Notes under the pieces: model-generated | Database searches by the model: none | Told to the model about the DNA's origin: nothing | Seen by the model: only the letters and a program-made list of their open reading frames with translations | NCBI GenBank assembly: GCA_963782055.1 | Contig: CAWAIF010000003.1 | Span: 6,400,001-6,464,000, forward strand | Direction of reading: 5' to 3' | DNA length: 64,000 bases | Source: an uncultured delta proteobacterium | GTDB taxonomy: Bacteria; Myxococcota_A; Polyangia; Polyangiales; Polyangiaceae | Shown here: positions 23,972 to 34,096 of the stretch, one piece after another | How the letters are laid out: each line of letters opens with the position of its first letter | Numbering within the stretch: the stretch's first letter is position 1 | Program-made: the position numbers and the translations under genes

Positions 23972-25510
23972 TCAGAACTGGCCATAGACGAACGGCTCTG
24001 CCTTCGCGCCCGCCGCCAGGTGCAAGCACAGCGCGACCGCGGCGAGCACGGCGCCCTGCACGACGGCCGGGGTGCGCGCGAAGAGGCCGTGAACGCGTTC
24101 TTCCCAGTCCTTCGGCACGAAGTGCAGGACCATGGCGACGACGACGAGCACGACGACCTTGGCGGGCAGGTTGGTGGTGCCCCACTCCAGCCGGCCGATG
24201 CGAGAGAGCATGAGGCTGGCGTGCGCGAAGGTGGGCGCGCGGAAGAAGATCCAGGCGAAGCACACATACTGGAAGGTGAGGAAGGTGGCCACCGCGTTGC
24301 CGAGCCAGGAGCCACCGGGCGCGGGTGCGCTCGGGCCGCGGCGGGAGGGCAGCGGCGCGCTCTCGCCCTCCGGCGCGAGGCCGGCGGTGGCGCGGCGGGT
24401 GCGCCACCTCTGCCACATGCGCGTGCCGGCGAGCGCCACGCCGTGGAGCGCGCCCCAGATGACGAAGTTCCACGACGCGCCGTGCCACAGGCCGCCGAGG
24501 ACCATGGTGATCATCAGGTTGCGGTACGTCTTCCACGAGCCGAAGCGCGAGCCGCCGAGCGGGATGTACAGGTAGTCGCGCAGCCAGGTGGAGAGCGAGA
24601 TGTGCCACCGGTGCCAGAACTCCTGCAGATTCTTGGAGATGTAGGGGGCGTCGAAGTTCTTCGGAAGCTCGAAGCCGAAGAGGAGCGCGCTGCCGATGGC
24701 GACGTCGGTGTAGCCGGAGAAGTCGGCGTAGATCTGGACGGCGTAGGCGTAGACGGAGACGAGCACCTCCACCGAGGAGAAGCGCTCCGGGTTGTCGAAG
24801 ACGCGCCCGACCATGTTCTGCGCGAGGGTGTCGCCGATGACGATCTTCTTGAGCAGGCCGGTGGCGATGAGCCAGAGGCCGCGCGCCTGCTGCGACTCGT
24901 CGAAGACGGGCTCGCGGTCGAACTGCGGGAGCATCTGCCGCGGGCGCACGATGGGCCCGGCGACGAGGTGCGGGAAGTAGCAGACGAAGAGCAGGTAATC
25001 GAGGTAGCGCCGCGCGGGCAACAGCTCGCGGCGGTACACGTCGATCGTGTAGCTCATCGTCTCGAAGGTGAAGAAGGAGATGCCGAAGGGCAGCACCAGC
25101 CGCAGGTGCACGCGCGAGACGTTCCACCCGGCGGCGTGCGCGAGGTCGGCGAAGGAGTCGACGGCGAAGTTGAAGTACTTGAAGACCGCGAGGACGCCCA
25201 GGTAGTAAAAGACGGAGCAGAGGAGCAGCGCCTTGCGGCCCAGCGGATGCTCGACGCGGCCGAGCGCGCGGCCGATGTAGAAGTCGAGCGTGGAGCCGAG
25301 GAAGATGATCCCGAGGCAGAGCACGCTCCAGGGGATCGCGCCCAGCGGGACCGGCTCGTCGCGCGCGGAGTCGAAGGTGCCGTAGAAGTAGAAGCCGTAG
25401 CTCGCGACGATCAGAAAGAGGATGCGCAGGGTGCGGTGCTTCCGGACGGCCCAGAAGACGACGAAGCACAGGACGAGAAAGACCCCGTAGAGCGGCGAGT
25501 TGAACAGCAC
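23972..25510 (-). CDS. MBOAT family O-acyltransferase (AlgI/PatA/DltB-like)
   Basis: MLFNS, LPFGISFFTF, FPHLVAGPI, DFSGYTD, EFWHRWHISLSTWLRDYLYIPLGG, LWHGA, PFVYGQF. Confidence 0.95.
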   Translation of the reverse strand: MLFNSPLYGVFLVLCFVVFWAVRKHRTLRILFLIVASYGFYFYGTFDSARDEPVPLGAIPWSVLCLGIIFLGSTLDFYIGRALGRVEHPLGRKALLLCSVFYYLGVLAVFKYFNFAVDSFADLAHAAGWNVSRVHLRLVLPFGISFFTFETMSYTIDVYRRELLPARRYLDYLLFVCYFPHLVAGPIVRPRQMLPQFDREPVFDESQQARGLWLIATGLLKKIVIGDTLAQNMVGRVFDNPERFSSVEVLVSVYAYAVQIYADFSGYTDVAIGSALLFGFELPKNFDAPYISKNLQEFWHRWHISLSTWLRDYLYIPLGGSRFGSWKTYRNLMITMVLGGLWHGASWNFVIWGALHGVALAGTRMWQRWRTRRATAGLAPEGESAPLPSRRGPSAPAPGGSWLGNAVATFLTFQYVCFAWIFFRAPTFAHASLMLSRIGRLEWGTTNLPAKVVVLVVVAMVLHFVPKDWEERVHGLFARTPAVVQGAVLAAVALCLHLAAGAKAEPFVYGQF

Positions 25511-25604
25511 GGCGCGCCTGCCCTATAGCGCGACTCGCCCCGCGCGTGCGAGACCGATCGCCGGGGCGGGCTCCGGGACGCGCGCCCAGTGCTGGGCCAC
25601 GTCC

Positions 25605-26360
25605 TCAGAAGAGCATCGCGGCGCCGCCGAACTGGAGCGTCGCCCCGGGCGCCTGCGGGATGTCGGCCGTCTTCCAGGCGTCGCCGTCGAGCGTCGCCGA
25701 GAAGACCTCGCCGCTCTCGGTGAAGCCGTAGAGCGTGCCCCTCCACGCGGCGAGGCCGTAGACGTTCTTGTAGGGCACGGGGCCGTAGTTCTTCTTCAAC
25801 GCGCCGCTGTTGGGGTCGGCCTCGACGATGCAGTCACCGCAGCCAGGGCCGCTGACGCTGAGGAAGAGCCGGCCGTCGTAGGTGTAGACGAGGTCGCCGC
25901 TGATGCTGAGCTGGGCGTTGGGGTCGTTGCCCGTCGCGAGCGGGCCGACGTCGCTCGTCGTGCCGTCGGCCATGTTGATCTTGACGTACTCGTTGCCGTA
26001 GTAGCCGACGAGCGTCTCCTGCGCGGGGTCGAGGATGCCGGCCGGCACGAAGGCGAGCGCCACCGGTACGGTCGAGCCGCCCACCTTGGTGCAGGTGCCC
26101 GTCGCCGGGTCGACCTTGTTGAGCGCGCCGTTGGACACCCAGAGGCCACCCTGCTGGTCGATCGCGATGTCCACCGCCTCCGCTGCCTCGCAGCCGGTGA
26201 GGGGGCCGACGGGCGTGGCGGCGAGCGACGCGACGTCCAGCGAGTAGAGGGTGCTCGCGCCGTTGGCGTACACCAGCCTGGGAAGGGGCTCCTCCGGCGT
26301 GCTGTCGCTGCTGCATGCGAGGAGTCCCGCGGCGAGCCCGAGGGCGAGGATGCGGCTCAT
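25605..26360 (-). CDS. Lipoprotein, probable beta-propeller
   Basis: Lipobox LLAC; repeated beta-rich units (DIAID, VDPATG, GDLV, YGLA). Confidence 0.8.
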   Translation of the reverse strand: MSRILALGLAAGLLACSSDSTPEEPLPRLVYANGASTLYSLDVASLAATPVGPLTGCEAAEAVDIAIDQQGGLWVSNGALNKVDPATGTCTKVGGSTVPVALAFVPAGILDPAQETLVGYYGNEYVKINMADGTTSDVGPLATGNDPNAQLSISGDLVYTYDGRLFLSVSGPGCGDCIVEADPNSGALKKNYGPVPYKNVYGLAAWRGTLYGFTESGEVFSATLDGDAWKTADIPQAPGATLQFGGAAMLF

Positions 26361-26429
26361 GGCTCGATCCTACGCGAGGCGAGAGGCCGTGACCATGGCG
26401 AGCGCGCGTGCTATCGGCACACGCGGACC

Positions 26430-27935
26430 GTGAGCACGCAGAGCCCCTCGGCGAACGAAACGGCGCCCGCGCCCAAGACGCGCCACCCCCTCGCGCAGAA
26501 GACGACGCGGGCGCTCCTCGTCATGCTTGCCCTGCTGGCGATCCCCTATGCCTCGCCGCGCCTGCGGCGGCTGCGCATCGTGCACGCGCCGTGGGACCAC
26601 ACCGACACCGAGGCCGTCGCCGCGGCGCCGGTGGTCCCGCCGCCGGTCACCACGATGGGGGAGGACCAGCTCGGGGCGACGCAGAACCAGGCGACCGTCA
26701 CCAACTCGCTGCCCGCCGACGACCGGGTGCCCCTGGACGCGGAGGAGCTCGCCAAGGCCGCGGGGTCCATCGCCATCGAGGACGCCACCGGCCACGCGCT
26801 CGACGCCTTCTACGCGCAGCTCGCCCGCACCATCCGCAAGGAGCCCGGCGCCGTCACGCGCATCCTCCACTACGGCGACTCCGTCATCGCGAGCGACTAC
26901 GTCTCCGGCACGATGCGCCGCAAGATGCAGGAGCGCTTCGGCGATGCCGGCCACGGCTTCATCCTCACCGCCAACCCCTGGGAGTGGTACTTCCACAACG
27001 ATGTCTCCCACCGCGCCTCGGGCGGGTGGAGCATGAGTCGCATCACCGGCCCGCTGGTCAAGGACGGCCTCTACGGCCTGGGCGGCGTCTCCTTCCACAC
27101 GCGGCAGACGGCCACCGCCACCTTCAGCACCGTCTCGCGCGGGGACTTTGGCCGCAGCGTCTCGCGCTTCGACGTCTACTACCTGGAGCAGCCGGACGGC
27201 GGCGACTTCCAGATCGAGATCAAGGGCAGCGACCCGGTGCGTGTCTCGACGCGCGGCGACGCCAAGGTCTCGCGCAAGAAGTCGGTGACGGTGCCGGACG
27301 GCCCGGCGTCCATGACGATCCGCACGCTGGGCGGGGGCGACGTGCGCATGTTCGGTGTCGTCATGGAGCGCGACGTCCCCGGCGTGACCTACGACGCCCT
27401 CGGCGCGCTCGGCGGCCGCGCGAGCCTCTGGCACGTCATGGACGCAGCGCACTGGAAGGACCAGATGACGCTGCGCGACCCGTCGCTCATCGTGGTGCAG
27501 TACGGCACCAACGAGAGCGAGGACGGCGGCGTCAACGAGCCGCAGTACCGCAAGTCGCTCGGCGCCCTGCTGGATACGCTGAAGGCGGCCGCGCCCGGTG
27601 TGTCCATCCTGGTCGCCTCGCCGATCGACCGCGCGGAGCGCGACGAGAACGGCCACCTGCGCACGCCGCACGTCATCCTGCGCCTCGTCGCCCTGCAGGA
27701 GGAGATCGCCAAGGCCCACGGCGTCGCCTTCTGGAACACCTTCCAGGCGATGGGCGGCAAGGGATCGATGGCCAAGTGGGTCAAGCGCGGCCTGGGCGGC
27801 GGCGACCTCACGCACCCCTCGCCCGCGGGCGCGACCGTGCTCGGCACCCTCTTCTTCAAGGCGCTCACCACCGGCTACGACGCCTACGCCAGCACGCACA
27901 AGGACGCGCCCATCGTCGACGCCGGCAGCGACTGA
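26430..27935 (+). CDS. Membrane-anchored SGNH/GDSL protein (PatB/Ape-like O-acetyltransferase or esterase)
   Basis: TM helix; ILHYGDS, RFGDAGHGF, YGTNE, DLTHP. GTG start inferred. Confidence 0.88.
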   Translation: MSTQSPSANETAPAPKTRHPLAQKTTRALLVMLALLAIPYASPRLRRLRIVHAPWDHTDTEAVAAAPVVPPPVTTMGEDQLGATQNQATVTNSLPADDRVPLDAEELAKAAGSIAIEDATGHALDAFYAQLARTIRKEPGAVTRILHYGDSVIASDYVSGTMRRKMQERFGDAGHGFILTANPWEWYFHNDVSHRASGGWSMSRITGPLVKDGLYGLGGVSFHTRQTATATFSTVSRGDFGRSVSRFDVYYLEQPDGGDFQIEIKGSDPVRVSTRGDAKVSRKKSVTVPDGPASMTIRTLGGGDVRMFGVVMERDVPGVTYDALGALGGRASLWHVMDAAHWKDQMTLRDPSLIVVQYGTNESEDGGVNEPQYRKSLGALLDTLKAAAPGVSILVASPIDRAERDENGHLRTPHVILRLVALQEEIAKAHGVAFWNTFQAMGGKGSMAKWVKRGLGGGDLTHPSPAGATVLGTLFFKALTTGYDAYASTHKDAPIVDAGSD

Positions 27936-27939
27936 CCAG

Positions 27940-27985
27940 CGCGCCCCCGTCCCCCCAGACACCCGCGCCCCCGTCCCCCAGACAC
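27940..27985 (+). repeat. Tandem direct repeat, 2 x ~23 bp
   Basis: CGCGCCCCCGTCCCCCCAGACAC (27940-62) and CGCGCCCCCGTCCCCCAGACAC (27964-85). Confidence 0.8.
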
Positions 27986-28656
27986 ACCACGGCGCACCAG
28001 ACGAGGGAGCGCCCGGTGCGAAAACGCAGAAGTGACCGGCGCGCCCTTCCGGGCGGATGACTCTGGCGGAAAATGGACGAAGGTCCCGGTGACTACGAGC
28101 AGAATTTGTAATGCGGCACCCTTCATTTCAGGCACCAGGGGTCCTGCTACCCTCCGCACACGCCACCACTCCACCAGGTTCCGAAGCAGGAGCGCCGACG
28201 ACAGGCGGCTTGCACCGCCCATCCGCGCGACAGCCGTGGTCATGCTACTTTCCGGCGCCTGTCGCCCTCACCGCACACGGCGAATGACGGCACGCGCTTC
28301 GAGTTTTCGACCTCGATCGCCCTCGCCCGCCGTCGAGGCGATGCCTCGTCGTGCAGGGGTGCCGCGTGGTAGCGCGGCGCGGTCCGGGGGCGGGAAAGCA
28401 AGCCCGGCAACAGCGTTCGGCCCGAGGGAGCTCGCTTGCGCTCCTCTCTGTCCCAATCCGCAAGCCCTTTAGCTTTGCAAACTCATGTCATGAAGCCGTC
28501 CTCCATGCAGTGATCCGTTTGTTTCGGCGCGCCCACGCGAGACAGCCGCGTCCAGCTCCGCTCGCGAGTCGGATCTGGTGGTGCGCCTGCAAGCCTCCGA
28601 GCACGAGTCGTGCCGACACGAGAGGCGCGTGCTTGCCGCGCCGCACGACTGGCGAC

Positions 28657-28693
28657 CCTGTCCCCCCTGTCCCCTCCGCCTGTCCCCGGACAC
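28657..28693 (+). repeat. Three copies of CCTGTCCCC
   Basis: Copies at 28657, 28666 and 28679; the last continues GGACAC, echoing the 27940 repeat. Confidence 0.6.
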
Positions 28694-28724
28694 CCCCGTC
28701 GCACCCGGCGACAGGCGGGATCCC

Positions 28725-30158
28725 TCAGAGCGGAATGGCGACGAAGGGGGACTGCTCGCCCTCGCCCGAGCCGGCGGGCGGCGCGTCGGACGGGGTGATC
28801 GTGGGGCGCGGCGGAGGCGCGGCGACGGGCGGCAGGTTCTTCTGGGCGCGCCAGTCGGTGTAGGCGCGCAGCAGGTCCGCGGCGAAGAGCTCTCCCAGCA
28901 CCGCGTAGCCATCCCGCGTCATGTGCGTGTGGTCGTGCTGGGCGCGCGGCGGGTCCTCGTCGGCCCAGGTGATCATGGTGCCGGGCCCACCCATCGCGGT
29001 GAGCTGATCGTAGAAGCCGCAGCCCGCGGCCTTGGCCACGCGGCGCTCCACCTGCACGATGTCCTGGACGCGCTGCGAGGGCACCCACGCCTTGCCGCCG
29101 TCCGCCGCGGGGGTATCCGACTCGATGGCGCGGTCCGGTGGGCCGAGCAGCAGGCACGAGGCCGACGGCACCGCCCGCGCGACGCGGCCGAGCGCGTCGA
29201 CGAGCTGCCGCTCGATGAGGTCCATGGATTGATCGTCGGCCGACTCGTTGGTCCCGTAGGCGAGGACGACGAGGTTGGGCGAGCGGTGGCGGATCTGCTC
29301 GGCCATGTGCTGCTCGTTCCACTGCAGCGTCGTCGCGGCGCGCGCGCCGTTGATGCCGAGGGCGTCGTAGACCACGCCCACCTTCGCACGATCGAGCGAG
29401 ACGCCGAAGAAGCGCACCTCGCCGTCGCCCCTGGCGCGCACCTCCAGGCGGTGCGGGCCGTCGGGCACGTCCACCTCCTTGTACGCGGAGGCCGCAGTCT
29501 TCGCGCGGGTGGAGACGCGCGCGGCCGGCAAGCCGTCGACCAGCAGCTCGAAGGACCCGCCCTTCGGCTGCGCGAAGTAGTCCAGCTCGATGCGCGAGGA
29601 GGGCGCCGTCACCTCCGTCCACGCGCGCGCGTTGCGCTTGCTGGTGAGCAGGCACCAGCCGGCGAGCCCGTAGCAGCCGTCGCCCACCAGGTGGCCGTGC
29701 TCCAGCTTGCCGTGCTCCGCCTTCCAGCTGTGCGTCATGCCGGGCGACTTGATGCCCTCCTGGTAGTACGTGCGCCACGGGCGGCCGAGCTCCAGGAAGC
29801 CGCGGCCACCGTCGCCGAAGCGCGCCTGCAGCTCCTGGCGCACCGTCCCGGTCTCCAGGTCGGCGGCGGTGTGCGAGTCGCCGAACTGCAGGACGCGCAC
29901 GTCCTCGGTCGCGGTGCCGTCGTCGACGGCAGCCAGCGCGGTGAAGAAGTGGCCGAGCCGCCCCGCGTTCTCCAGCGGGCTCGCGGGAGGGACGGGCGCC
30001 GGCGCCGCCGCGTCGGTCGCGGCGGCCACCTGCACCGACGCCGCCGGCCGCACGACCGTCGGCGCGCTCACCTGCTCCGGCGTCTGGCCGCGGTCCCCCA
30101 TCGCGGTCGTCTGCCCGCAAGAAATCAGCAGAAACAGCGGCAACAGCGGGCGGCGCAC
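28725..30158 (-). CDS. SGNH/GDSL lipoprotein (PatB/Ape-like), paralog of 26430-27935
   Basis: Signal MRRPLLPLFLLISC; LQFGDSH, RFGDGGRGF, YDALGING, YGTNE, DHTHM. Confidence 0.88.
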   Translation of the reverse strand: MRRPLLPLFLLISCGQTTAMGDRGQTPEQVSAPTVVRPAASVQVAAATDAAAPAPVPPASPLENAGRLGHFFTALAAVDDGTATEDVRVLQFGDSHTAADLETGTVRQELQARFGDGGRGFLELGRPWRTYYQEGIKSPGMTHSWKAEHGKLEHGHLVGDGCYGLAGWCLLTSKRNARAWTEVTAPSSRIELDYFAQPKGGSFELLVDGLPAARVSTRAKTAASAYKEVDVPDGPHRLEVRARGDGEVRFFGVSLDRAKVGVVYDALGINGARAATTLQWNEQHMAEQIRHRSPNLVVLAYGTNESADDQSMDLIERQLVDALGRVARAVPSASCLLLGPPDRAIESDTPAADGGKAWVPSQRVQDIVQVERRVAKAAGCGFYDQLTAMGGPGTMITWADEDPPRAQHDHTHMTRDGYAVLGELFAADLLRAYTDWRAQKNLPPVAAPPPRPTITPSDAPPAGSGEGEQSPFVAIPL

Positions 30159-30236
30159 GACCAAGGGATCCTTGCACGTTACAGCCAGCCGCGCGAGTTT
30201 ATTGCGGAACGGCGAGACTTTCGCCAGGGTGCGCGT

Positions 30237-30761
30237 GTGCTGGAGCGCGTTCTGGATTTCTTCGCGCCGATGTTCGGCCGCGACCTCGGGCCGCGCGCGC
30301 GGGTCGTCGTCGCCGGACTGTGGGTGGCGGGGCAGGCCGCGCTCATCGCCACGGGCGGCATGCGACCGGACAACGCCTTCGCCTTCCGCATGTTCAGCGA
30401 GTCGTCCACCATCCAGATCGTCCTGTACCGCGAGGTGGAGGCCATCTCCGGCGAGGGCACCCAGCTCGTGCGCGTCGGCGCCGACGGCTCGTGGGTCGCC
30501 ACCGACGACAACGGCGACCCCCAGCGCTTCTCCTGGCGCGATCGCGTCGCGGATCCCACCCTCTCGCGCCTCGACGTGACCGAGCACGCCAGCTACGGCG
30601 CCGACGCCCAGCTCGCGCGGCTCCGTGCGGCCCTCGACGACGTCATGGCGCACACCAACAACGACACCCAGACGATCGCGCTGGTCGCCGACGTCACCGT
30701 GCGTCGCAACGGGCGGCCCCCCGAGCACGTGCGACTGACGAGCGCGGCGCGGGGCCGCTGA
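30237..30761 (+). CDS. Single-TM protein, possible gamma-carboxylase lumenal-domain/SdpA-like partner of the HTTM protein
   Basis: TM followed by FAFRMF; stop overlaps the next start (TGATG). Start uncertain (GTG 30237 or ATG 30270). Confidence 0.7.
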   Translation: MLERVLDFFAPMFGRDLGPRARVVVAGLWVAGQAALIATGGMRPDNAFAFRMFSESSTIQIVLYREVEAISGEGTQLVRVGADGSWVATDDNGDPQRFSWRDRVADPTLSRLDVTEHASYGADAQLARLRAALDDVMAHTNNDTQTIALVADVTVRRNGRPPEHVRLTSAARGR

Positions 30762-31885
30762 TGGCCGGCGACCTCCTCGGCCGCGCGCGCAAGCGCCTCC
30801 GCGCCTGGCAGATCGAGGGCGGCGACACCCACGTGCTCGCGGTGGCGCGCATCCTCTTCGGCCTGCTCCTCTTCTGGCAGGCGCTGGACGCCGCAAGGGC
30901 CCTCCACGACTCGCGCTACTTCGGCGACGTCTTCCACATGCCGATGATCCCGGAGGCCCTGGTGCCCTCGCGCACCGTCTACGTCGGCATCCTCGCGGCG
31001 CAGATGCTCTGCGCGGCGCTGGTCGTCGTCGGCCACCAGGCGCGCCCCGCCCTCCTCTTCTCCGCCCTCTCCGTCGTCTACGTGCTGCTCTGCGACCGGC
31101 TGCACTACCACCACAACCGCTACGCCCTCGCCTGCTACGCCTTCCTGCTCGCCTTCTCCCCGTGCGACCGCACCCTCGTGCTCGGGCAGACCCCGGAGGA
31201 GGAGGACCGCTTCGGCCCGCTGTGGGCGCAGCGCCTCGCGCAGCTCCAGGTGAGCATCATCTACCTCGCCTCCGGCGGCTCGAAGCTCCTCGACGCCGAC
31301 TGGCGCCATGGTCTCGTCTTGCTCGACCGCCTGACCCGCTACGGGTACATCGCGCTCGACAAGGGCGTACCGCAGCGCGTGGTCGCCGCCTTCCAGCAGC
31401 CGCTGGTCGCCAGCGGCCTGGCGAAGGCCGCCATCGCCACCGAGCTGCTGCTCGCGGTCGGCCTCTGGGTGCCTCGGCTGCGCGCGCCGCTCCTCTGGTG
31501 GGGCGTCATGTTTCACCTCACCATCCAGGTCACCAGCCAGGTCGAGCTCTTCACCTGGACCACGCTGGTCGCCTACGCCCTCTTCGCCACGCCCGACCGG
31601 CGCGCGCGCAAGCTGCGGTTCGATCCCTCGCGCCGCGTCTGGAAGTGGCTCGCGCGGGGCATCAAGGCGCTCGACTGGCTCTCGCGCTACGAGCTCAAGG
31701 CCTGGGAGCCCGACCGCCTCCGCGCGCGCTCGCTGGTGGTCGTGCGCCGCGACGGCAGCATCGCCACCGGCCTGCGCGCCGCGGCGATGGTGGCGCGCAC
31801 CACGCCGCTGCTGTTTCCCCTCTGGGGACCGCTCGCCCTCGTCGCCGCCTTCACCAAGAGAGGCGACGCCGGCGTCCGTTCGTGA
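30761..31885 (+). CDS. HTTM-domain protein (vitamin K-dependent gamma-carboxylase-like) with C-terminal DCC1/DUF393-like domain
   Basis: ARILFG, YHHNRY, QVSIIYLASGGSKLLDADWRHG, GVMFHLTI; tail LRFDP..IKALDW..VVRRDG..GLRAAAMVARTTP. Confidence 0.85.
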   Translation: MAGDLLGRARKRLRAWQIEGGDTHVLAVARILFGLLLFWQALDAARALHDSRYFGDVFHMPMIPEALVPSRTVYVGILAAQMLCAALVVVGHQARPALLFSALSVVYVLLCDRLHYHHNRYALACYAFLLAFSPCDRTLVLGQTPEEEDRFGPLWAQRLAQLQVSIIYLASGGSKLLDADWRHGLVLLDRLTRYGYIALDKGVPQRVVAAFQQPLVASGLAKAAIATELLLAVGLWVPRLRAPLLWWGVMFHLTIQVTSQVELFTWTTLVAYALFATPDRRARKLRFDPSRRVWKWLARGIKALDWLSRYELKAWEPDRLRARSLVVVRRDGSIATGLRAAAMVARTTPLLFPLWGPLALVAAFTKRGDAGVRS

Positions 31886-31901
31886 GAGTGTCGGAGGCCG
31901 C

Positions 31902-33731
31902 ATGGCCCCGCGCGCGCGTGCGCTCCTCGTGCTCCCGCTGATCCTCGCCCTCGGCGCGCCGGCCGCCGCCGCGGGCCCGGCGGACCCCTCCGCGCCGGTG
32001 TCGGAGACCTTCGGTTACTCGCCGTACGAGACCGAGACCATCGCGATGGTCCTTGAGCGCCTCCACGCGCGCGCCGAGCCCGCGCCGGACGGCAAGATCA
32101 TCGAGGGCATCGACGTCGTGCGCCTGGAGGTCTTCGAGCACCGCGATCCGGTGCCGTACTTCCTGAACGCCTTCCACGCCACCTCCAAGGAGTGGGTCAT
32201 CCGGCGCGAGGTGCTCCAGGACGTCGGCGACAAGTACGACCAGCTCCTCGTCGACGAGACCGCGCGCAACCTCCGTTCTCTCCCGCAGCTCTCCCTCGTG
32301 CTCACCGTCGCGGTGAAGGGCTCCTCCCCGGGCAAGGTGCGCCTGGTGGTCATCACCAAGGACGTCTGGAGCCTGCGACTGCAGTGGGACATCATCCTCA
32401 CCAACGGCGGCCTGGAGCGCCTCGTCCTGCAGCCGGCGGAGACCAACCTCCTCGGCATCCACCACACCCTCGGCGCCAACTTCCTCTACCAGCCGCTCTC
32501 CACCTCCCTGGGCGCGTACTACGTCGTGCCCCGCTTCGGGCGGTCGCGCGTCGAGGCGACCGCCAGCGGCAACGTCGTCGTCGACAACACCACCGGCAGC
32601 CCGGAGGGCTCCTTCGGCGGCGCCACCGTCGCCCAGCCCCTCTGGTCCACGCGCACCCCCTGGGCGTGGAGCGCCACCGCGCAGTGGCGCAACGAGATCA
32701 CCCGCCGCTACTCCGAGGCGGCGCTCGCCACCTACGACTCGCCCCTCACCCCGCAGAAGGACGGCATCCCGTACGAGTACCACAGCGATCTGGCCCTCGC
32801 CGAGGCGAGCGTCACCCGCTCCTTCGGCTGGAAATACAAGAACGACTTCGTCCTCTCCTTCCAGGCGCTGCACCGCAGCTACTCCACCCTCGACCTCTCC
32901 GGCTTCGACCCCGCCGCCGTCGCCCAGTTCCGCGCGACGCGCGTCCCCATGAACGACGACCGCGTCGGTCCGGCGCTCCAGTGGCGCACCTACACCAACG
33001 ACTTCGCCCGGGTGCTCGACCTGGAGACGCTCGGCCTGCAGGAGGACGTGCGCCTCGGCCACTACCTCGGCGTGAAGGTCTACCCCGTCTCGCAGAACCT
33101 CGGCTCCACGCGCACCTTCCTGGGCGTCTTCGCCGAGGCCGGCTACACCGCGGCGATCAAGGACGGCATCTTCCGCGTGGACGTCCAGAACACGACCGAG
33201 GCCAACACCACCGACGTGCTGCAGGGCGTCTTCGACGCCGAGACCTACTTCGCCACCCCGCGCTTCGGCATCGGCCGCCTGATCTGGGCGGGCCGCTTCA
33301 TCGACCGCTACGCCGACTACCTCAACCAGGTCAGCTACGTCGGCGCCAACAGCGTGCTGCGCGGCTACCCGAGCAACTTCTTCGTCGGCAAGAACGTCGT
33401 CGCCTCCAACCTGGAGTACCGCTCGCGTCCCCTCGAGATCCTCAAGGTCCAGGTGGGCGGTGTCCTCTTCTACGACGCGGCCAGCGCCTTCGACGACTGG
33501 TCGCAGGTCGTGCCGCGGCACGCCGTCGGCTTCGGCGTGCGCGCGCTGCTCCCCCAGTTCGACCGCATCGTCTTCCGCGCCGACCTCGGCTTCCCCATCT
33601 CGGCCAGCCCGCTGCCCGCGGGCGTCGGCCCCGTCACCTTCTACGTCACCTTCGCGCAGGCGCTGGAGGCGCCGCAGTTCGGGCCCCCGTCCTCCAGCAT
33701 CGGCGCGCTGCTCGGCTCGACCTCGCGCTGA
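31902..33731 (+). CDS. Omp85 (BamA/TamA)-like outer membrane protein with POTRA-like domain
   Basis: Signal peptide; TSKEWVIRREVL..ETARNLR, ETNLLG, LRGYP, NLEYR, FYDAA, GFGVR, RADLGFP. Confidence 0.85.
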   Translation: MAPRARALLVLPLILALGAPAAAAGPADPSAPVSETFGYSPYETETIAMVLERLHARAEPAPDGKIIEGIDVVRLEVFEHRDPVPYFLNAFHATSKEWVIRREVLQDVGDKYDQLLVDETARNLRSLPQLSLVLTVAVKGSSPGKVRLVVITKDVWSLRLQWDIILTNGGLERLVLQPAETNLLGIHHTLGANFLYQPLSTSLGAYYVVPRFGRSRVEATASGNVVVDNTTGSPEGSFGGATVAQPLWSTRTPWAWSATAQWRNEITRRYSEAALATYDSPLTPQKDGIPYEYHSDLALAEASVTRSFGWKYKNDFVLSFQALHRSYSTLDLSGFDPAAVAQFRATRVPMNDDRVGPALQWRTYTNDFARVLDLETLGLQEDVRLGHYLGVKVYPVSQNLGSTRTFLGVFAEAGYTAAIKDGIFRVDVQNTTEANTTDVLQGVFDAETYFATPRFGIGRLIWAGRFIDRYADYLNQVSYVGANSVLRGYPSNFFVGKNVVASNLEYRSRPLEILKVQVGGVLFYDAASAFDDWSQVVPRHAVGFGVRALLPQFDRIVFRADLGFPISASPLPAGVGPVTFYVTFAQALEAPQFGPPSSSIGALLGSTSR

Positions 33732-33787: not shown

Positions 33788-34096
33788 TCAGTCCGGCGGG
33801 ATGCAGATTGGCGCGGAGCCGTCACAGCCGGCGCGGCACGCCGCTCCGCTACCGAAGCGCGCGACGCACCGGTTGTCCTCGGTGCACGCGACGGTGCAGA
33901 TGTTCGCCATCGACGAGCACCCGTTTCCGACGGGCAGCGACTCGGTCAGGCACGTCGTCCCGCCGCCGCAGTCCGGCTCGACCACGTTGCACGGCTCGCC
34001 CGGCGGGATCTCGCCCGCGTCGCTCTTGCCCCCGCATCCGGCAGCCACCAGCGCGAGGCAGATGACCAGGACCGGGCTCCAGGGGAACCGCGTCAT
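33788..34096 (-). CDS. Small Cys-rich lipoprotein, hypothetical
   Basis: MTRFPWSPVLVICLALVAAGC lipobox; GGAGG SD; 10 further Cys. Confidence 0.75.
   Translation of the reverse strand: MTRFPWSPVLVICLALVAAGCGGKSDAGEIPPGEPCNVVEPDCGGGTTCLTESLPVGNGCSSMANICTVACTEDNRCVARFGSGAACRAGCDGSAPICIPPD

Follow-up and report, generated by a model that had tools for sequence, protein, structure and literature searches.

At positions 30,237 to 33,731 of a 64,000-nucleotide stretch of DNA from an uncultured member of the Polyangiaceae (hereafter the window; GenBank assembly GCA_963782055.1, contig CAWAIF010000003.1, positions 6,400,001 to 6,464,000 of the forward strand), three adjacent genes encode a small membrane-anchored protein (gene 1), a membrane protein related to GGCX, the gamma-glutamyl carboxylase that depends on vitamin K (gene 2), and an outer-membrane protein of the Omp85 superfamily (gene 3). 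The first two genes are genuine and form a unit. The explanation that we favour, with somewhat better than even confidence, is that their products form an obligate inner-membrane heterodimer that reconstitutes a vitamin K-dependent carboxylase core, with the Omp85 protein as a bystander. The genes and the features within them, in window coordinates, are as follows.

30270 to 30761, plus strand: gene 1, 163 amino acids (aa), with an in-frame alternative GTG at 30237; a single transmembrane (TM) helix, predicted to be N-in, and after it an alpha/beta domain in the periplasm
30291 to 30350, plus strand: TM helix of gene 1 with the invariant Q22, the proposed equivalent of GGCX Q374; in the complex model, the helix packs against residues 155-170 of gene 2
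30378 to 30395, plus strand: gene 1 F37-F42 (FAFRMF), the proposed equivalent of GGCX Y397-M402
30761 to 31885, plus strand: gene 2, 374 aa, with an HTTM/GGCX-like membrane domain at about 22-279 and a cytoplasmic thioredoxin-fold tail
31109 to 31120, plus strand: putative substrate loop of gene 2, H117-H118-N119-R120; H118/N119 align to GGCX N159/H160 in swapped order
31283 to 31285, plus strand: gene 2 K175, aligned to the GGCX catalytic base K218
31598 to 31819, plus strand: degenerate DCC1-like thioredoxin-fold domain of gene 2, lacking CxxC
31902 to 33731, plus strand: gene 3, a 609-aa single-POTRA Omp85 (BamA-like), not counted within the enzyme system

This arrangement had been proposed in a sequence-only reading of the stretch and was borne out: all three open reading frames (ORFs) are on the plus strand, the stop codon of gene 1, which ends at 30761, overlaps the ATG of gene 2 by one base, and 16 nt separate the gene 2 stop from the start of gene 3, which is preceded by GGAGG. 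The GC content at third codon positions is 0.95-0.98 in genes 1, 2 and 3. The ATG at 30270 is the likelier start of gene 1, rather than the GTG at 30237, because aligned homologues begin near there. The spacing of the three genes would, by itself, suggest co-transcription.

Gene 2 encodes an HTTM protein, matching PF05090 above the cut-off and adopting the GGCX membrane fold, and its alignment to GGCX is confined to GGCX residues 47-328. The QVSIIYLASGGSKLLDADWRHG, YHHNRY and FH motifs named in the sequence-only reading are present and align to the GGCX segment indicated there. Equivalents of GGCX K218, W223, D263 (as Glu), F286, H287 and F299 are kept in 50-51 of 51 aligned sequences, with Lys at position 175 in 50 of them; K175, W181, E228, F251 and F264 correspond to quinol-activating residues and to the Phe of the CO2 pocket (the F299 position). 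The lumenal domain PF22777 was found neither in the gene 2 chain nor elsewhere in this genome. The C-terminus of gene 2 has a weak match to DCC1, below the cut-off, and no Cys is conserved after residue 135 in the 51 sequences, which leaves this tail without the CxxC of DCC1-like proteins. One gene 2 copy (L068:5931-7055, minus strand, in genome G254) lacks the catalytic Lys, the HHNR loop and the FH motif, still lies beside gene 1 and is possibly inactive.

Gene 1 belongs to a family that had no annotation. It matched no Pfam or NCBIfam family, either alone or through 70 and 31 relatives, and neither gene 1 nor the 70 relatives matched SdpA (PF17418) or DUF5819 (PF19136). No PDB sequence was matched by the gene 1 profile, and an Atlas search returned only clusters of hypothetical Myxococcota proteins plus DUF4857 at 0.85. 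Sequence searches retrieved 315 homologues; the named relatives are proteins of Polyangiaceae, Pendulispora and Labilithrix, Pendulispora being a cultured carrier. Of 301 genomes from the order, 45 carry the gene, a tally that, like those for full-length carboxylase (VKGC) below, includes one genome flagged as unpublished (G123), on which none of the conclusions rests; in the family, carriers number 28 of 90 genomes; in a sample of 251 genomes of the phylum, the gene occurred in eight, every one inside the order. F37, F39, M41 and F42 are invariant across 44 close homologues, M41 being replaced by Pro in many distant ones. The AlphaFold2 model of gene 1 (predicted local distance difference test score, pLDDT, 91.5) consists of a helix at residues 8-27, a loop, strands, a helix at 111-127 and two further strands. 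Its topology is predicted to be N-in, by analogy with GGCX and from its N-terminal Arg residues.

The pairing of the two genes is strict. Gene 2 directly follows gene 1 in all 40 genome loci examined, which represent 40 of the 45 non-self gene 1 matches, the five omitted lying mostly close to contig ends. In 31 of 49 rows, a set that includes nine GTDB loci, two of them duplicates, the start and stop codons share 1 or 4 nt. In metagenomes, for which the closest 80 of 381 loci were taken and which are biased to close relatives, gene 2 follows gene 1 in 67 of 68 informative loci, the lone exception having an interrupted gene 2. In that locus (L220:4506-8000), the gene 2 homologue is broken after about 20 codons by ORFs that read as conjugative transfer genes, pointing to either an insertion or a chimeric assembly. 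A natural fusion of gene 1 with an HTTM domain was not seen among the long matches in the best 150 of 193, with one match of 3645 aa uninspected, and a further search for longer proteins containing gene 1 likewise yielded none, which is weak evidence. Four long matches do combine stretches resembling genes 1 and 2, but they look like assemblies with frameshifts and were rejected as fusions.

A model of the complex of genes 1 and 2 reached an interface score (ipSAE) of 0.81, against 0.00 for the best of three controls, with a contact agreement between runs of at least 95% and a partner pLDDT of at least 86. Among solved pairs, 116 of 157 reach the mark applied to this score, as do 2 of 215 mismatched pairs; these figures can be carried over to the present case only roughly. 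In the model, the FAFRMF loop of gene 1 is placed at the catalytic Lys of gene 2 and contacts gene 2 residues 121 and 166-171. The modelled interface mirrors specific contacts known from GGCX (10.1101/2025.02.09.637231). Gene 2 F58, aligned to GGCX C99, touches residues 120-125 of a gene 1 helix, and in GGCX C99 forms a disulfide with C450. Residues 146-149 of gene 1 (an NGR turn at the position of N474-R476) and gene 2 D180 (the D222 position) both lie in the modelled interface, and in GGCX R476 and D222 form a salt bridge. Gene 1 F39 touches gene 2 A170/S171, at the positions of I213/A214; A214, together with M401, holds bicarbonate in GGCX. Based on these models, we propose that gene 1 is the equivalent of GGCX TM9, of the loop LL9 (the W399-M402 loop) and of PBD-1, an assignment that gives a role to a previously unannotated family of 160-aa proteins. 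The heterodimeric architecture is the part of our explanation held with high confidence.

In the resulting scheme, gene 2 would supply TM1-8, the quinol pocket and the catalytic Lys175, the fold and residues of which are observed, and gene 1 would supply the last TM helix, a loop closing the active site and a single periplasmic lobe turned towards the substrate, as modelled. The split point would correspond to the cytoplasmic loop before TM9, occupied here by the Cys-less DCC1-like domain. Lys175 would deprotonate menaquinol, and addition of O2 would then yield a strong base attacking an acidic residue gripped by the H117-R120 loop. The use of menaquinol is suggested by the presence in the genome of two genes of the futalosine pathway and two VKOR genes. 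With the active site facing the periplasm, the substrate would be a periplasm-exposed peptide or protein encoded elsewhere. We regard quinone-dependent chemistry by the pair as probable. Carboxylation is plausible and is the single likeliest chemistry, yet we hold it with less than even confidence; in its favour, gene 2 resembles VKGC more closely than SdpB or the DUF5819 partner, and it keeps the CO2-pocket Phe. The gene 2 profile scored 57-106 bits against full-length bacterial VKGC, 39 against an SdpB-type protein and 19 against a DUF5819-partner protein, although the VKGC set (26 of 30 loci) had been chosen by similarity to gene 2, which biases its scores upward.

That bias is one of several points that weigh against the carboxylase-core explanation. 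GGCX requires N159, H160 and Y395. In the pair, the first two of these Glu-binding residues are swapped as H118/N119, and gene 1 varies at the position assigned to Y395, a mapping that itself depends on a weak alignment. PBD-2 and the Arch domain are missing. The good score of the complex model may owe something to its likeness to solved GGCX structures. When the gene 1 profile is aligned with the C-termini of 26 bacterial full-length VKGCs, the two are colinear between the TM Gln and the NGR turn, yet the match is non-significant (probability 1.8%, P 0.027), two of 29 block-shuffled controls scoring above the real alignment. A hidden Markov model test at a threshold of more than 3 bits gave 8 of 89 hits for real sequences, 1 of 89 for reversed and 1 of 267 for shuffled ones, a slight enrichment among kin that are non-independent. 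The earlier claim of a split GGCX-like pair is, then, upheld by the fold of gene 2, by strict adjacency and by the complex model with the FAFRMF loop at the catalytic Lys. The core of Lys, Trp, FH and Phe is common to SdpB-type and DUF5819-partner proteins too. The catalytic Lys is non-diagnostic of carboxylation because these proteins keep it and because a linaridin with an HTTM gene is reported to be dehydrated and not carboxylated (PMC9927463; 10.1101/2020.07.09.196543). Finally, a search of 46 neighbourhoods, with a rough gene caller and a limit of 60 aa, revealed no recurrent precursor or substrate gene next to the pair.

Some of these points fit a heterodimer of the same build that performs a non-carboxylating peptide chemistry, such as the dehydration, epimerisation or secreted-peptide maturation proposed for SdpA/SdpB or linaridin LinG/LinE. 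Split HTTM systems with a known product yield secreted or dehydrated peptides, and the Glu-binding triad altered in genes 1 and 2 would agree with such an activity. We nonetheless consider this alternative rather unlikely, since gene 2 is closer to VKGC and reaches an E-value of 0.02 and 14.5 bits against the SdpB model (cut-off 178), gene 1 and its relatives lack a match to SdpA or DUF5819, and the pair has no recurring precursor, whereas the SdpAB- and DUF5819-type loci that we retrieved each carry one. A second alternative is that the pair modifies an envelope polymer, together with divergently oriented SGNH genes and an AlgI-type MBOAT, or handles quinone with a non-protein substrate. The commonest neighbour of the pair is a divergent SGNH gene, in many cases accompanied by the MBOAT and another SGNH: among loci with enough upstream DNA, it was found in 20 of 33 from genomes and in all 36 from metagenomes, the latter drawn from the close-relative set described above, and it is far commoner there than Omp85. 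Against this, SGNH is distant from the pair in distant carriers, one genus has unrelated genes between the two, and SGNH was found in 19 of 20 genomes without gene 1 and not found in 3 of 16 with it. Its persistence without gene 1 led us to reject SGNH/AlgI as an obligate partner, and we judge this alternative improbable, a little more so than the previous one.

The sequence-only reading had gone further, joining all three genes into a modify-and-export system in which the Omp85 barrel would translocate or assemble the modified substrate. The 16-nt spacing on one strand and the retention of the arrangement in three genera and several metagenome contigs speak for it. So does a quick tree of gene 2 (67 rows, one too-short locus dropped), in which copies adjacent to gene 3 are ungrouped, with 6 changes of which at least 3 are forced; the arrangement may, therefore, predate one recent event. 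Nor would a core Omp85 need to be linked to the pair in order to serve the substrate. However, among loci with enough downstream DNA, gene 3 follows gene 2 in only 4 of 37 from genomes and 6 of 31 from metagenomes, and no locus of a distant family has it. The 30 best Omp85 loci, own locus counted, have genes 1 and 2 within 1.5 kb in six cases. Whereas gene 1 is restricted as described, this Omp85 was matched in 192 of the family's 200 genomes, one of 1.8 Mb among them, with two of the matches being weak. In a quick tree of Omp85, all 11 adjacent copies fall into one clade of 13 rows (SH-like approximate likelihood-ratio test support 100), the other two being one copy 9 kb off and one of unknown position. 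Because a near-universal gene adjoins an accessory pair in one clade, the adjacency is read as clade-specific synteny, and gene 3 is most likely a bystander. Non-conserved linkage to Omp85 was what the sequence-only reading had said would tell against an export link, and linkage confined to one clade is what we found; the three-gene system appears very improbable, and with it goes the source of much of the original appeal of the locus.

Gene 3 itself has a hydrophobic N-terminus and one POTRA-like stretch, residues 96-221, corresponding to positions 336-461 of the BamA model. Its Omp85 matches are weak and below cut-offs (TIGR03303, 21.6 bits versus 297), it lacks the five POTRA domains of BamA, and a canonical BamA is encoded elsewhere in the genome. 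Both its POTRA number (within the range of 1-3) and its presence besides BamA agree with the description of BamA-like Omp85 proteins.

Divergent from gene 1, the segment at window positions 23972-30164 carries an AlgI-type MBOAT, a beta-propeller-like lipoprotein and two SGNH/GDSL genes, and is a probable envelope O-acylation cluster. A frequent convergent neighbour of the pair is nadE. On the other side of the locus lies a small gene that had been suggested as a substrate.

33788 to 34096 of the window, minus strand: small Cys-rich lipoprotein, about 102 aa

As no homologue of this lipoprotein was found in any other locus scanned, it was rejected as a substrate. A more general possibility is that, in Polyangiales, a two-subunit GGCX with a rewired HHNR substrate loop uses menaquinone to drive the carboxylation of acidic residues, independently of any precursor, on periplasmic or secreted proteins whose genes are scattered over the chromosome. 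We offer this as a speculative extension and think it unlikely; if true, the pair would be a general bacterial counterpart of gamma-carboxyglutamate (Gla) modification and not a natural-product tailoring enzyme. Bacterial relatives of GGCX are reportedly widespread, with substrates said to be largely unknown except in the case of MloH.

Among known systems, the small-partner and HTTM gene pairs SdpA/SdpB (and YitP/YitO) of Bacillus subtilis and LinG/LinE of linaridins resemble genes 1 and 2 in gene organisation and in the Lys, Trp and FH core. SdpAB is reported to be a split HTTM system with a secreted peptide product (PMC6818787). Unlike SdpA/SdpB, our pair scores 14.5 bits against TIGR04033 (SdpB; 178.4 being the cut-off), has no SdpA match and no precursor gene, and gene 2 has an HHNR loop where the SdpB-type protein has a GGD loop. 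SdpA and SdpB do occur as a pair, with a precursor-like gene upstream of them, in another Polyangiaceae genome (L153, G034), SdpA being matched in 1 of 201 genomes of the phylum. The genome studied here contains two other HTTM loci. One (L150:1429-2945, minus strand) is a second split pair, in which the HTTM gene is overlapped by one of about 200 aa that encodes a TM helix plus an aromatic motif; its small partner has no detectable similarity to gene 1. The other (L151:955-2271, minus strand) is a third HTTM gene of unsplit layout, with the last TM helix and the lumenal domain fused. Gene 3, for its part, resembles the BamA-like Omp85 subfamily (PMC4104836) in having one POTRA and a barrel and in being additional to canonical BamA.

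The closest published architecture is the DUF5819 and HTTM-DCC1 pair of Melghirimyces thermohalophilus, described as a predicted GGCX-like complex in which the second clamp lobe is absent (10.64898/2026.08.19.745780). There, too, a small gene with an N-terminal TM helix and a lumenal domain adjoins an HTTM gene whose product ends in a DCC1-like domain, and the predicted complex of genes 1 and 2 is likewise GGCX-like. The differences are that gene 1 is not DUF5819 by Pfam (PF19136 having no match in this genome), that gene 2 scores far higher against full-length VKGC than against the DUF5819 partner, and that its DCC1-like domain lacks the CxxC present in the partner that we retrieved. A locus of that type in another genome (L152, G511) combines a DUF5819 gene with an HTTM-DCC1 gene having an intact CxxC, and has a small secreted, glycine-zipper-like protein encoded upstream. 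The split GGCX architecture itself is, then, already published (10.64898/2026.08.19.745780). The novelty lies in a separate subfamily from Polyangiales, in which the partner gene is unannotated, the HTTM protein has an HHNR loop and a DCC1-like domain without Cys, and no substrate is encoded locally; our literature searches, with most subscription journals outside their coverage, found no paper on this pair.

Of the order's 301 genomes, 155 encode full-length bacterial VKGC (PF22777), frequently as 2-3 copies and with no known substrate. It occurs in 28 of 45 carriers of the pair versus 127 of 256 non-carriers, and this co-occurrence led us to reject the idea that the pair replaces it. With GGCX and full-length VKGC such as MloH, the pair shares the TM1-8 fold, the residues K218, W223, D263/E, F286, H287 and F299, and the M401 position, which lies in gene 1. 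Unlike them, it is encoded by two genes, has N159/H160 swapped and Y395 not kept, has a loop shorter by about 8 residues and is without PBD-2 and Arch. Compared with these enzymes, the pair would represent a minimal two-part version in which the quinol-activating site is kept, the Glu-binding site changed and the propeptide clamp absent, and it would offer a compact test of the residues that decide between carboxylation and other HTTM chemistry.

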